A stretch of DNA of 64,000 bases from Octopus sinensis (lineage: Eukaryota): contig NC_043003.1 of the NCBI RefSeq assembly GCF_006345805.1, forward strand, positions 93,744,001-93,808,000, given 5' to 3'. Shown piece after piece: positions 31,601-55,305 of the stretch. The number at the start of each line of letters is the position of its first letter. Position 1 is the stretch's first letter. The notes below the pieces were generated by a model, which saw only the letters and a program-made list of their open reading frames with translations, was not told the origin of the DNA and did not search any database. The translations under genes were made by a program, and so were the position numbers.

Positions 31601-33880
31601 TCAAACCCCCGCCCTCCCTTTTAGGAACAGTTTCCTCTCGGCCCATTTCTGGGTGAGATTGGCCACTCTGATCGTAATCTCATCCCAATTTCTCTCTGTT
31701 TGGAGGTCTGGACCAAACCAAACCCCGAGCAATTTCAGCGGGCCATCTGTCCAACGCCTTACGATGTTGTTAGGTGGCATCAACCTGTCTGTCCAGGTTC
31801 CGAGCTGCAGGCCAACCGACTTATCATGGTTTATTTTTGCCCCTGATACCACTTCGTACTCCCTAATGGCATCACCTACTAGATGCAGGTGTATGTCACA
31901 GGATACGAATACGGTGGTGTCGTCCGCATAGGCTGTTACTGTCATCCCGCACTCTAGATCACGCAGGACGCCTCTCAAGGCCTCCACTTTCTGCAGTAAT
32001 GGCTCAAGGGCCAGAACGTACAGAAGGGAGGATAGGGGACATCCTTGGTGGACGTACGATGCTGAACTTCTCTGAAAGATGACCGTTCATCCGAACTACC
32101 AATTTAAATGTCAGGATTATTAACCATCCTGTCTATGGTGTAGCGTAGAGGAGGAGGCTGTCGTGGATTGTTCTGGATGGAATATCGCATGTTTTGCCTT
32201 CCCACCCAGTTTGTCGACGACAGGCGCCAACCTCTTATCTAGCACCTTGGCCAAAATCTTCAGCTCTGCATTAAGCTGAGTGATGGATCTAAAGTTATCT
32301 ATAACGTCATCCTTGTTTGGGTCCTTTCTTAGCAGCACCACGATCCCCCGGCTCACTGACCTAGAAATGCTTCTATCCTGTTGCCAGTTGGCGTAGATAT
32401 TTGCCAGTAGGCTCCCAAACAAGTCTGGCATATTACAATAGAACTCGTAGGGCAGACCATCTAGACCCGGTTGACTTGCCCCCAGTGCAGCCCGGTAGGG
32501 CCTCTTCTACCTCCGCAGCTGTGATCGGCCCTTCACAGCACTCCGCCTGCTGCGTTCAGAGTCGCAGCAGACCAACCAGGAAATCCGAGAAGTCTATCCC
32601 GCGATTCGGCCCACCGCTCATCCCGAACAGCTGAGCGAAGTGCTGGTGAAGGACCTTACATATTTTGTCGGGTTCGTTAACCGTGCCTCCATTTTGGTCG
32701 ACCAAAGACTGTATGGCGGCTTTATTACCACGTTGGGTCTCTACTATGTGGGCCCATCCCGCAGCGTTGATTCCCTCTTGTCTCATAGCACGAAACTTAG
32801 GTCTGACAATACAACCTTCGTGCTTGGCATTGAGGTGTTGGTCTAGGGCCAATATTGCTGCCAGCATGTTAGAAGTATTGCCAGATTTTAATGCCTTTTC
32901 TAGTGTGCTAAGTCCCTTTCTATTCTATTTTTTCTAATGCTAAAACGTTGCTATATCTACGTGACTCAAATTTAATGGCTCTTTTTAGGGCGTACCACCA
33001 GTTGTTATTGATGATGGCTCCTGTTAACGCCGTTTTCACTAATTCTCTAATCCGAGCACTATCTACAAAATCTATCTAAATCAAGCTTACAAATCACAAA
33101 CTTGTGATCCGTATAGCTGTCGATCTGAAACTGTGGACAACTAACGCTAGATTTATCACCTAACCTAATGAATGCTCTATCTAATAGGATCTGGAAGACT
33201 CGGTGCTGTTGGTTCATGTCCACATCCTATGTGCATCCGGATGAGCCATTCTAAACCTATGTGCATCTGGGTGATCAATTCTAAACCTATGTGCATCTGG
33301 GTGATCAATTCTAAACCTATGTGCATCCGGGTGATCTATTCTAAACCTGTCAGCCAGTTGAAAGCAACTGAACAGGTTAGTGAGGCAAGTATTCCTTTTC
33401 TATTTGGAGTTGAGCCAACACAACCCACACGTGCATCTAGGATTGTGTTAAAGTTACCTACTAACACTAACGTGCATAACACCCCGAGGAAAGCCTCTAG
33501 GCGTCTGAAGTAGTCGGATTGACCCGTGATGTTTGGGGCATAAGCTGCAACCAGTCTGAAGGCGTTGCCACTGCTATGTGTCGCGTTAAGGACAACCAGC
33601 TTGCCTTCTGGGCCCACAAAGATTATCATGATTTCTAAATCCAGGCCTTTTCGGAATAAAAGCACAATTCCTCTGCCTCCTCTAGGCTGGCTTGAAGATC
33701 GAAGAGTGGCGAAAAAGCTCGTGATCCGGTCAGCCTGGTTTCTCTGGTGACTACGACATCCAAATCTCGCCCTGAGATCATTTAGCAAGTATATTTGCTT
33801 CCAATATGATCCTAGACCATGCATATTCACACTATCGAGATTGAACGAAACCACGATAAGCAGGTTTAGAATCGATAACA
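31601..33880 (-). mobile_element. L1/Tx1-clade LINE ORF2 pseudogene (APE endonuclease + RT)
   Basis: SVNMHGL...LVAAYAPN...LVGNFNTILD (EN); NFRSITQLNAELKILAKVL, QGCPLSPLLY and AYADDTTV...SGAKINHDKS (RT); frameshifted. Confidence 0.9.
33226..33348. repeat. 30-bp tandem repeat x4 inside the Tx1 endonuclease
   Basis: cctatgtgcatcYggRtgaNcNattctaaa four times. Confidence 0.95.
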
Positions 33881-33949
33881 TACAAAATTCCCCACTCCAC
33901 CCACCAAAAAAAAAACACAGTTTAGACAAACAAATAGCGGAACTTACAA

Positions 33950-35042
33950 GAGAGAAAAAAACACGTCCGAATTGTCGAACTGGAATGAAAAGTGCTGGGG
34001 AAATTGTTAGAACCACAAAGTATGCCAAATCTACTGTTTTTAGTGTTGTAATTCAATTTGAAGAGAACTCGGGATGTTCAGAGAAAGTCTCACAGGCCTC
34101 TTAGTGATAGAAAACGCACACCTCACTTCTTAGCAGGACTTGAAAGATCGACTGAGTCGAACCCATCAAAATCGATAGTGAAGTTGGCTCAAGATCGAGG
34201 AATCAGTAAAATGACCGTTTCTGGGGCAGTGAGACAAGGCCTCCATATGAAATCGTATGTGAGGAAACACCGTAACATCCTCCAAAGTCATTTGAGGTGA
34301 AAGAAGTCCCAAACTTATTAGTCATCTGAAACACTGTGACGAAGACGTCTGCATCTTCGTGAATGAAAAGAAGGTCATGATAGACGAAGTTGCAAACCGT
34401 CAAAATTCACAAGTGAAAGCGTACGATCCTTCCCAAGTTCCTTCAGTTATGAATAGCAAGAATCCAGCTTCCATTATGATCTTTAGAGCTGTTGCATGTG
34501 ATGGGAAATTGACGCCTCCTCGTGTTATTGAAGCGGTTCTTAAAATCGATACAGCAGAGTATCTAAAAATCTTAGAAGTTTTGTTGCCTTGGATTACGAA
34601 GCATTATTATGCAAGTCGGGTTATGTTTGTATAGGACTCTGCACCAGCCCTTTCTTCGAAAAGAGTGCAAGAATTTTTGAAGAAGGAATTGCCCATCTTT
34701 GCCCCTGAAGATATCTGTCCTTCTAGCTCGCAAGATTTGAATCCGTGTGAGTTTTTGTTATGGAGCGCAGCTGAAGCAATATCCAACGCAACTTCTCAGA
34801 ACTGTGTGTATTCACTGAAGGCTTCGATCAAGCGAGCATTCGGTAAAAGGAGAAAGGAAATCAATTCATAAACAGATTGAACTGGTAAAGAGATTAAATG
34901 GCGGTCACATTGAACTGAATCAAGTACTAAATACTCCACACTAAATTGCCATGAATATAAAATTTGCAGTGTCTGATTTTTCCAAGTTATACTAATTATA
35001 ACAAAAATATTTAACTGGTCCCAATTTACCTGTTACACCCTG
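33950..35042 (+). mobile_element. maT (DD37D-type) Tc1/mariner pseudogene with 3' TIR
   Basis: DSAP...PSSSQDLNPCE has 37 residues between the acidic positions; HTH N-terminus; ends ggtcccaatttacctgttacaccctg|ta. Confidence 0.85.
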
Positions 35043-35439: not shown

Positions 35440-36720
35440 TCGCCATTGGCTTCAACCACGGCCTCCAGATGACTTCGGAATCTCCTGTAACTTCTCTGGG
35501 CGGTCTCCTTGTTTAAGTTGGTGAATGTTGCTATAATATTTGTTTTCAGTTCATCTATGGTGTTACAAGGAGTTTTGTTGGTCTCTCGCTCAACTGTTTC
35601 TCACATATAATAATGAAGGCGGTTGCAGTCTGGAGAGTTAGATGGCAGATGCTAGAGGTGATGTGGTCGCAGAAATTGTCTGACAGCCATGACTGGGTTC
35701 TCCTGCTTGTGTGACATGGTGCAGAGTCCTGTTGTCAAACATAGAACCCTCCAGCAGTCACCCTCTTGACGCAGAGCTACACTACCTCCTCCAGACACAT
35801 AGTGTTGGGCTCTGTGTTGAATCTGATGCCGCGTGGGAATATTAATAGAGGCATAGCGACGCTATCTCTTTTGATCACTCCAAACAACATGATGTTGAGT
35901 GGAAGTTTGATTTTTATCCTTCTCGGTACATGTTTTCGGGACACGGCAAGCCAACAGTTGTTCTATGTGTTCACTATCTAATCCTGGCAGAAATTTGTCT
36001 CGTCTGAGAAAAACCAAAGTATGGTTTGAAGGGTATGCTTGAGTTTGTTCAAAAGCTTGGTAGCGCGGTCTTTCTTCACCGTATACACACACACACACAC
36101 ACACACTCATATATATATATATATATATATACACATGGTGTAACAGGTAAATTGGGACCATTTAAATATCTTTACTATAATTAGTACAAGATGAGAAAGG
36201 GATAAAAATTGGCCCTTTCTCATCTTGTACGAGGAATACCGAATGTCTTCATGCACTACTTGCCTGACAAGAAACTCAGACACTCTCATGGCCCTGACGA
36301 TGGACCTGAATAGCTTGGAGGGATCGTTGTCAATCAAGGCCTGGATCTCACCAACAAATTCATGAGTTCTTTTTTTATCAGAACGATCAAAATGAGTTTT
36401 CCGAGCTGCCGTACCTTCATATTCACCATTAGATTCATCCAACTCTTTCCGAATCTTCTGCACTGTCCTCAGATTGACACCCAAGCACTCTGAAATATTC
36501 CAATTGCAGTTCCAGGTGCGAATGCCAAGCAGTGCAGTATATCGTTTCCAAATTTCTAGCAGAGTGAATTGCGTTTTGGTGCTGTGTTTCTCACAGACGG
36601 TGCCCAACTGCCCCCCTACTATACTGTGTAGTCGACAACATCAAAAGCAAATAACGTTCATGAGCGAAATAAAAATATAAAAAATATAAAATAGCGACAA
36701 TTTACCCACTGCACCCTATT
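35440..36720 (-). mobile_element. Second maT-type transposase pseudogene, interrupted
   Basis: WFFSDETNF...QQDSAPCHTSRRTQSWL and the N-terminal HTH (ORF 36107-36607); interrupted at ~36083-36195 by a microsatellite and a TIR piece matching the neighbouring element's end. Confidence 0.85.
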
Positions 36721-52810: not shown

Positions 52811-53417
52811 ATTTCATTAATCATGCAGGTAGTACAAAAGGTAGATTCATAAATGACAGAAATAGTTTGATGAAATTTTATGCCCCAGCATGGCCGCGGC
52901 CTTCGGGCTAAAACATTTTTAAGGATTTAAGGAATAAGAAAATTCTAATATCACAACAAATTGTTTCGTAACTTAAAAACATGTAAATAATTAATATTAT
53001 ATATTTAATAATAAATAAGTTACTTACATGTTTCCACTTATGCAAAAGGCAAAAGTTCCTTCTAAATAATGCAGAATTTAAGCTATGTATATTGTAACAC
53101 ACATACACGTATATGTGTATATATACATATATATATATACATACACACACACACACACACATATAATTGTAGGTAGTTTTCACACATTAGCGTCTCCTAG
53201 CAAGCAGTCGGTCTCGTATTCGTACGTGTTAGCTCCTGATATATATATATTTTATATATCAATTTATAAAATGATTAATTTTACCGTAACCAGTTGATTG
53301 CATGCTAGCTACCTGATAAAATCTAACATAGATTTTATTTTCAATTTTTTTAATAAGAAAATACATATTTTTAATATATCATTTCACCCAAACCAAAATT
53401 ATTCAATGCTGAATTAT

Positions 53418-54227
53418 CATCATCATTGTTCGACCGTGGTCGAGACAATGGAATTTACTATGTTGCGCCAGAATTCACGGTCCATCATAGCATTACGGAG
53501 GTCCTGTTGCTGGATGCCTGTATCCCTGGAGATTACATCAGGGTAGGAGAGTGTGCGCCCTCTGGTGTTGCGAGTAGATGGCCTCCAGAGGAGAAGAGTA
53601 GAAATTACTTCTTTTTCAGCTCTACAACAATGTCCAGCAAACTGGACTCTCCTACCTTTCACAAGAGATGACACAGGTGGTAATTCCCATATATTGCATT
53701 TTAGTTGGATGGCGCCTCCACGAGAGATTTTGAGCTCTCATAAGGAGGCGAGTGTAGGTTCCATCCAACCGCCTCTCAAGCTTCTTTGATAACGTCCAGG
53801 TTTCTGAGCCATATAGTAGGATTGGTTCGACTGTGGCTTTGAATATTTCAAGTTTGAAGTCTCTACTTAGATTTGATGACCAGATCTTATGCATGTCATT
53901 ACAGGCTGACCATGCCATACCCTTTCTAGTTAGAAAGTCTTTTCCAGATGATGATATGTATGACCCAAGATATTTATAATCAGAAACCATATTTAAAGGT
54001 GCACTGTTGAGAGTGTGGATAATGCAATCACTGATGGACAGGCACTTGTTTATGTATTCAGTTTTGGCCTCATTGAGGTAAAGACCTACACAGTTTGAGG
54101 CTTGTTCAAGAGATTGTAAAAGAGACTGGGCATTGGAGAGAGAATCACTGATAAGAGCGATGTCGTCAGCAAAGTCAGTGTCTGTCAAGTACTCAGCTGG
54201 GTGTCTGGAACTTCTTCTTGGTTTTAT
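53418..54227 (-). mobile_element. 5'-truncated RTE-clade LINE with 16-bp TSD
   Basis: DTDFADDIALIS...VGLYLNEAKTEY...YKYLGS...ILLYGSETW; (atg)n tail; ttcaatgctgaattat duplicated at 53402-53417 and 54228-54243. Confidence 0.92.
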
Positions 54228-54368
54228 TTCAATGCTGAATTATACGGTTATTAACACATAGTCGAAATAAACGATATCAGATTTTTGAATTTTTACTCTG
54301 TATATAAGTACGAACAACGTATTTACGGTGCGGAGCTTCTTCGTGTTTATGTGCATTGACCTGGTTGT

Positions 54369-54428
54369 ATTACACTGATGATAGAAAAAGGGATTGCCCC
54401 TTAATCTTGAAATCAATTGATATGTAAT
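54369..54428 (+). ncRNA. Minimal type-I hammerhead ribozyme (candidate)
   Basis: attaca-CTGATGA-t[aga..aaggg attgc ccctt..tct]t-GAAA-tcaattga-TA|tgtaat: 6-bp stem I, intact core, palindromic stem III, predicted cleavage after 54422. Confidence 0.75.
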
Positions 54429-55305
54429 TGAACTGTTTCATGAATCTGTTTCGTTTATTTGCACGAGTACGACGCGTGTTATTTTTTTATGGTGATATGT
54501 TAGGCAGTTTTCAGACATTAGCGTCTCCTTCTAGCAAGCAGTTGGACTCGTAATCGTACGTATTCGCTTCTGATATATATTTTTATATACCAATTTATAA
54601 AATGATTAATTTTACCTTTACCGGTTGATTGCATGCTAGCTACCTGAGATAAAATCTAACGTAGATTTTATTTTCAATTTATATATATATAATAAATGAG
54701 ATAGAGACAGAAAATGGAATATACGAGAAACATTATTACACATAATGATCGTTTCGACCCATCCTGCATCTATCTCTCGCGGGTGAGATACTGTAAAATA
54801 GAACGCGATGCATCCCTCGGTACAGAGTAGTCTCGTCAGGTGATGCTATAAGGGGTATCTCGTTAAATAGACCCTGTTTTGCTCGGTTTTAATACAACAT
54901 GTTGTTAGTGACGGTAGTTTTAAACCGTTGGGCACGAATGGCTAGGGACAGATTCAGTTGCGATGTTGCAGACGCTTGTCTACATTCTTTTTAGTAGTAA
55001 ATCAAAGAAAAATAAAAAGAACAAGAGAAATAAAATATACAATAAAGAAAAAAATTATATGCTTGAGTACACACCTAGATTTACTTGTGTAGCCACAGTT
55101 GTGGTTCTGTGTACACACACTCATATGCGCAGTTAAATAGATATCATTAAACTCTTTGTTGCTGTATTCCCACCCATAGGATATTATAGATATGATTTGC
55201 AATATTCTTAGATTTTAAGGGGAGTGTTAATACATGTGTTCGTTTCTTGTGAAAGATGGGAACAATAAGCGGTAGCCGGAATAAATAGCATAAGTGAACT
55301 TTGGA

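Follow-up and report, generated by a model that had tools for sequence, protein, structure and literature searches.

The genome of Octopus sinensis (2.72 Gb) contains a ~505-nt repeat, and one old solo copy of it, now interrupted, carries a complete type I hammerhead ribozyme core; we consider it about 80% probable that this repeat is a non-LTR retrozyme mobilised by Penelope-like elements (PLEs). The copy was found in a 64,000-nt stretch of A+T-rich, microsatellite-dense DNA, referred to below as the window. Judged from its sequence, it is a solo copy, now decayed, that belongs to a new family of non-LTR retrozymes, for which catalysis is predicted. The hammerhead is a real motif. Its core (C3 U4 G5 A6 N7 G8 A9 / G12 A13 A14 A15.1 / U16.1 H17) is complete and surrounded by three helices, with helix I open, in an arrangement supported by covariation, and its GC content is 0.33. 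The motif is composed as follows:

54363-54434, + strand: type I hammerhead ribozyme motif in its full extent, with both ends of distal stem I (sequence, covariance-model match and pair counts)
54369-54374, + strand: 5' strand of stem I, forming six Watson-Crick pairs with 54423-54428 (sequence)
54375-54381, + strand: core C3-A9, CUGAUGA (sequence)
54382-54408, + strand: helix II, with U10.1·U11.1 and 3 bp (54383-85 / 54405-07), then distally an AA/AA internal loop and a 5-bp hairpin (54388-92 / 54398-402) with a 5-nt loop (fold)
54409-54422, + strand: G12-A13-A14-A15.1, the 10-nt palindrome (54412-54421) and A17 (sequence)

A preliminary description of this DNA had listed stem I, CUGAUGA, a U·U pair, GAAA, the palindrome and an AUA triplet, and every one of these elements is present in the sequence. 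GAAA occupies 54409-54412, U54382 faces U54408 in place of the usual G10.1-C11.1 pair, which is absent, and the triplet AUA corresponds to 54420-54422, with the cut site predicted 3' of 54422. The description contained neither the internal loop and distal hairpin of helix II nor the distal part of stem I, where four further pairs (54363-66 / 54431-34) follow beyond a 2x2 loop. U2.7 (54368) is located opposite the unpaired U1.7 (54429). The call of a hammerhead is upheld by covariation in paralogues and sister families, whereas the accompanying claim of a loop-less stem III had to be given up: a single strand can form a 3-bp helix, of which A15.1-U16.1 is one pair, with AAUU as its loop. This helix is weak, with a pairing probability of ~0.01 in the folding model.

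The motif belongs to an insertion that starts behind a (TA)n(CA)n tract and ends in a short (TA)n run. Its organization is as follows:

53170-54690, + strand: whole insertion, ~1.35 monomers of the ~505-bp non-coding repeat
53170-53417, + strand: 5'-truncated first part without hammerhead (monomer positions ~331-504, then ~1-50)
53402-53417 and 54228-54243, + strand: 16-bp target-site duplication of the LINE fragment (exact match, not extendable)
53418-54227, - strand: LINE fragment, a later insertion into the element (open frame and Pfam RVT_1)
54228-54690, + strand: hammerhead-bearing remainder of the monomer (alignment; nhmmer monomer positions 33-504)

The two overlapping parts of the repeat (53170-53347 and 54501-54680) share 88.5% identity. 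The LINE fragment represents the 3' end of a reverse transcriptase with a short ATG-repeat tail and contains a 195-aa open frame (53655-54239) with a Pfam RVT_1 match (E=7e-6) below the curated cutoff; we take it to be RTE-like by motif. In the alignment, the window copy lacks ~25 bp near 54336 that are present in most paralogues, and it departs from the majority of its subfamily at 46 of 437 positions. An intact core is found in nine out of 25 copies of this subfamily, including the window copy. The locus, with its single ribozyme and the LINE insertion, is probably an inert fossil. In most paralogues, a splice-donor-like sequence, CAG/GTATGT (TGG/GTATGT in another subfamily), precedes the core by ~47 nt. 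It is deleted from the window copy at ~54336, and an acceptor-like sequence is found near 54500-54513. The family may have an intron that spans the ribozyme.

A relaxed hammerhead descriptor matched once in the whole 64-kb window, namely at this motif. Among 300 dinucleotide shuffles, any match of the descriptor occurred in two and a stem I of at least 6 bp in one, and none of the 300 combined such a stem I with a palindrome of at least 8 nt. A covariance model built from the family matches the window at 54357-54441 with 111.6 bits, a high score by construction, and the next best score in the window is only 14.5 bits. The window thus holds a single hammerhead, and the upstream repeat at 53170-53417 is ribozyme-free, which contradicts the tandem context assumed in the preliminary description. 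The same description had proposed confirmation against Rfam, where the outcome was negative: no Rfam hammerhead family was detected in the window even at E<=10, and the motif does not reach the gathering threshold of RF00163 Hammerhead_1 (34 bits). Across the genome (74 candidates scored), RF00163 recovered seven other loci, none of them the window locus or related to its repeat family. MicroRNA and snoRNA matches of Rfam in the window were rejected as low complexity or sub-threshold, such as SNORD82, whose 16.7 bits fall short of the gathering score of 43.

For the analysis of covariation, 34 of the 42 extracted motifs were aligned; the eight omitted comprise one near-duplicate and seven in which a stem strand is missing or large parts are deleted. 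Pairing was found in 90.8% of 709 cells, compared to at most 49.1% in slid controls. The preliminary description had let its call depend on covariation among the paralogues, and covariation is indeed present. Pair 10.2-11.2 is AU in 22 copies, GC in ten, GU in one and unpaired in one. All GC copies fall into one clade of the tree, so the AU-to-GC exchange counts as one event. The number of pairs with changes on both sides (five) is not above that of shuffles, 113 out of 500 of which reached it. A register of helix II with a bulged U followed by A10.1-U11.1 was rejected and the U·U register preferred because the GC subfamily pairs in no other register. U10.1·U11.1 itself is found in 29 out of 41 family copies, while U1.7 and an A 5' of the 3' strand of helix II are each found in 38 out of 41.

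A pattern restricted to the core and the base of helix II gave 31 matches in the genome and none in the control. We read 30 of these (with L151 as a doubtful case) and found families whose helix I, distal hairpin and palindrome differ in sequence from those of the ~505-bp family. These sister families keep the U·U, the 3-bp stem and the purine-rich internal loop, and all except family E also keep U1.7. In all sister families seen, stem III is self-complementary, with letters that differ between families, and beyond the ribozyme the sequences have little or nothing in common. The families are:

Family C (L124, L125, L127, L131, L137, L147, L150): low-copy, with a ~515-bp unit
Family E (L143): low-copy, with the same hammerhead architecture and different stems
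Family D (L153, L161-L166, L173-L202, L233-L251): units of 545-558 bp, ORF-less, in long tandem and back-to-back arrays (>10 units)

The covariance model built from the ~505-bp family alone assigns 40.8-48.9 bits to the hammerheads of families C and E and 18.5-27.5 bits to those of family D; the three Rfam-type loci that were included are not reported by it. We should note that the scores of the sister families are not independent of the core, since the loci were picked by a pattern that shares it. The sister families are stronger evidence for covariation than the ~505-bp family alone. Family D is young, with at least 3,099 exact genomic matches to one 25-mer (control 0), and has a stem III palindrome of 8 nt. 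Of its 50 distinct 3' ends, 45 lie at two TA-rich sites ~100 bases apart, and its 5' starts are not clustered at the cleavage site (one out of 55 within five bases).

The palindrome bears on the mode of cleavage. In the folding model, which leaves out tertiary contacts and concentration and in which any palindrome favours a dimer upon cofolding, the two-strand MFE structure is an exact double hammerhead at -33.4 kcal/mol, compared to twice -14.1 kcal/mol for the best monomer fold, and the palindrome duplex has -9.0 kcal/mol versus +1.1 kcal/mol for the hairpin formed by the monomer alone. In the best monomer fold, the core UGAU is paired with AUCA of the palindrome; the probability of this pairing between core and palindrome is 0.17-0.55, and that of stem I is 0.09-0.35 in a larger sequence context. 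The double-hammerhead dimer is also the best structure for one copy of the GC subfamily. For one family C and one family D copy, the dimer pairs the palindrome and helix II is rearranged. The window hammerhead is thus predicted by the folding model to cut mainly as a dimer. The preliminary description went further and held that two tandem copies would be needed. The preference for the dimer agrees with both the folding model and a precedent in axolotl, but the strict need is too strong: the axolotl U·U ribozyme HHR_Amex2 has a shorter helix III, and its monomer is 22% cleaved in an hour, with the dimer performing much better (PMC7229834). With its single hammerhead and the LINE insertion, the window copy would be limited to slow cutting as a monomer or to pairing in trans.

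An efficient monomer hammerhead, built on the 3-bp helix III closed by AAUU and on a contact between U1.7 and the internal loop of helix II, with the palindrome being secondary, is a possibility that deserves attention, though we doubt it. Canonical metazoan motifs have a helix III of 1-2 bp (PMC4209133), shorter than the one here, and coral and mussel monomers are described as cleaving co-transcriptionally (PMC7229834). In addition, U1.7 and the A of helix II (each in 38/41 copies, as above) are placed as in the Hoogsteen pair between U1.7 and loop 2 described for hammerheads (PMC11875169). The very low probability of helix III in the monomer and the competing pairing of the core with the palindrome speak against it, as does the recurrence of a self-complementary stem III of differing sequence in every sister family seen. 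Returning to preferential dimer cleavage, a more speculative extension, which we put forward tentatively and think somewhat improbable, is that the hammerheads of several dissimilar retrozyme families in this genome would form a distinct subclass. It would be characterized by U10.1·U11.1, a U1.7-docked 2x2 purine-rich loop replacing terminal loop 2, and a core-pairing palindrome acting as a built-in switch, by which monomers and circles would be silent and only multimers would cut.

The repeat monomer is ~505-513 bp long and non-coding, with no long ORF in the unit. Three DNA searches yielded at least 42, 46 and 40 matches from 113, 97 and 49 candidates, respectively; 40 candidates were scored per search, and the family counts are thus lower bounds. 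Among the loci examined there are at least 59 distinct insertion sites with at least 71 arms. The 3' ends of the arms are found at monomer positions 415-434 (27/71) and 494-504 (17/71), both of which are TA-rich, and the arms ending there mostly run into (TA)n. The 5' ends are scattered around the monomer and not clustered at the cleavage site (five out of 71 arms in that 20-base bin), giving the family a 5' repeat of variable length, unlike an LTR. At 12 of the 59 sites arms occur on both strands (inverted), and at 25 the junction from monomer end to start is crossed. Two complete hammerheads on the same strand were found at one site only (L098), so tandem cis-dimers are rare among the surviving copies of the ~505-bp family, which persists mostly as old insertions of 1-1.6 units. 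A 449-bp tandem on contig C9581 was rejected as a tandem form of the repeat, being a local identical duplication that includes non-family DNA.

Insertions of PLEs are described as truncated at the 5' end, arranged in partial tandems, accompanied by 5' copies in inverted orientation and directed to (TA)n (bioRxiv 2021.04.23.441226; PMC8557442), and all four marks are found in the ~505-bp family. In the mechanism that we propose, an active ancestor would have given multimeric transcripts in which two neighbouring hammerheads would join through the 10-nt palindrome into a double hammerhead. This structure would cut after A17 and release monomers of ~505 nt, which would probably be circularised. 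The circles would probably then be reverse transcribed more than once round, primed at (TA)n targets, with a Penelope-type reverse transcriptase/endonuclease as the likely enzyme for both copying and inserting. A circular or multimeric template fits better than a cut linear monomer because of the scattered 5' ends and the permuted junctions. Several 5' starts at monomer positions 222-234, and likewise those of L137 and L147 in family C, fall within the 3' strand of helix II; these few cases perhaps reflect stalling of the reverse transcriptase at the hairpin. One sequencing run, presumed to be of RNA, gave a single 36-base match to a paralogue, which is not evidence of expression.

Since these insertion marks are identical to those of PLEs, the repeat could also represent a 5'-truncated pLTR of an autonomous PLE instead of an independent retrozyme. 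The mostly 1-1.6-unit insertions and the donor-like sequence upstream of the core in most paralogues would suit this origin, as PLE pLTRs can hold introns (PMC4209133), and homology between retrozymes and pLTRs has been reported (bioRxiv 10.64898/2026.07.22.740005). We nevertheless judge it unlikely. The 25 sites mentioned above pass from the monomer end straight to its own start with no ORF in between, no PLE ORF continuous with the repeat is present in the 10-kb stretches that were translated, and the PLE fragments at L114 lie on the other strand or 1.4 kb off, with relatives that lack the repeat. Moreover, the hammerhead is of the canonical type and not of the PLE minimal type, and sister family D occurs in ORF-less arrays of more than ten units. 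A search for an autonomous partner with two PLE protein queries (30 loci each of 150 matches; 59 of these 60 loci were scored with the family model) revealed no such partner and no shared repeat, and the 59 loci have no convincing DNA similarity to the ~505-bp family. One of them (L207) did match the family model, and this match is probably a separate insertion:

L207, 56-140, - strand: hammerhead motif with C10.1·U11.1, of the shared architecture but with stems of its own

The features by which a retrozyme is recognised are found here, namely a short, non-coding, low-GC unit with a type I hammerhead that is dispersed over at least 59 sites. Two consecutive hammerheads are not found in the window copy, which, having one, is classed as a solo derivative of a retrozyme and not as an active retrozyme.

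It is very unlikely that the motif was catalytically dead already in the source elements and passively carried along: the U·U and A+U-rich stems without G10.1-C11.1 would fit, as would a core kept by only 13 of the 36 BLAST-found copies and substituted there at 7.6% (30/395) versus 9.5% (307/3229) in neighbouring columns (p=0.23), yet the decay of the core that we observe dates from after insertion, among subfamilies and sister families all stems vary in a compensatory way and the core does not vary, and U10.1·U11.1 is known in active natural hammerheads. Selection on individual copies was likewise considered and rejected, since the apparent excess of core conservation vanished once the pattern-selected loci were left out and neighbouring columns were used for comparison.

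Among known systems, the metazoan non-LTR retrozymes, and especially axolotl Rtz_353, come close to the retrozyme family in the window. Rtz_353 is a low-GC non-coding repeat with one type I hammerhead per unit (HHR_Amex2), whose helix II starts with a U·U at its base and whose helix III is weak, with 2 bp and a tetraloop (Cervera and de la Pena 2020, PMC7229834). PLEs co-occur in the axolotl genome, as they do here, and dimer-enhanced cleavage is reported for axolotl. In contrast, the monomer of the window family (~505 nt) is longer than the 170-400 nt given in that paper, its helix II is lengthened by a 2x2 purine-rich internal loop and an extra hairpin, its 3-bp helix III lies inside a 10-nt palindrome, and the family consists mostly of old 1-1.6-unit copies and is known from DNA only.

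Li, Clavereau and Pollet (bioRxiv 10.64898/2026.07.22.740005) surveyed 31 vertebrates, three insects and one coral, and consider elements with two consecutive complete hammerheads as active and monomers as derivatives. Their solo retrozyme derivatives are dispersed hammerhead-repeat monomers like those of the window family, their consensus lengths (51-972 bp) span that of our family, and mobilisation by PLEs is proposed in the preprint. The window copy differs in having one hammerhead, where two define an active element, and no pLTR homologue was found here. For eight out of nine predicted Xenopus retrozyme dimers, the same preprint describes no cleavage.

The minimal hammerheads of PLEs, as described in PMC4209133, have a short helix I and retain G10.1-C11.1 together with one additional base. 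They resemble the window motif as type I hammerheads with a palindromic helix III for which dimer action is proposed, and the window family as a whole in their long helix II and the Penelope-type insertion marks. The window motif differs from them by having no G10.1-C11.1 pair and no single extra base after A9, the latter because the AU/GC exchange at 10.2-11.2 supports the U·U register. Its helix I has 6 bp, an internal loop and 4 bp, instead of 4-5 bp. A further difference from PLEs is that no linked RT/GIY-YIG ORF, between repeats or otherwise, was found at the loci examined. Dimer cleavage of PLE hammerheads was reportedly addressed by Lunse et al. in 2017.

Both unusual features of the window motif have been described for different hosts and elements by Perreault et al. 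(2011, PMC3088659), specifically natural hammerheads with U10.1-U11.1 and a motif of Aedes aegypti in which helix III of the dimer has 10 bp. The accessible part of that paper does not combine these two features with an internal-loop helix II. A search of the openly accessible literature found neither retrozymes from cephalopods nor a helix II built in this way.

The single locus is of little weight, being an old, LINE-interrupted copy of a known class, and its hammerhead is a modest structural variant within the known retrozyme class. It does lead to a hammerhead architecture which Rfam fails to report and which several families of this genome have in common. Family D, young and with thousands of near-identical tandem units, is a good substrate for questions on retrozymes, such as how retrozyme circles avoid self-cutting and which Penelope-type enzyme mobilises them. 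The natural covarying variants provide ready-made compensatory controls.

Several other elements were noticed. Loci L116 and L119-L122 represent another hammerhead family, unrelated to the present one and reaching the RF00163 threshold, in which inverted copies and a 431-bp tandem occur. The region 5744-6514 of L114 and its relatives L203-L232 represent an abundant GIY-YIG-like Penelope-type family, with at least 150 matches listed; in several of these loci, a hammerhead-like core whose helix II is very long lies ~640 bases from the end of the matched region. In the window itself, the frames at 31603-32086, 33338-34052 and 36109-36640 (all on the - strand) are further transposon remnants, presumably two LINE-like frames and one transposase-like frame by their motifs, and a 30-bp tandem repeat with 4.1 copies at 93% identity is found at 33226-33348.
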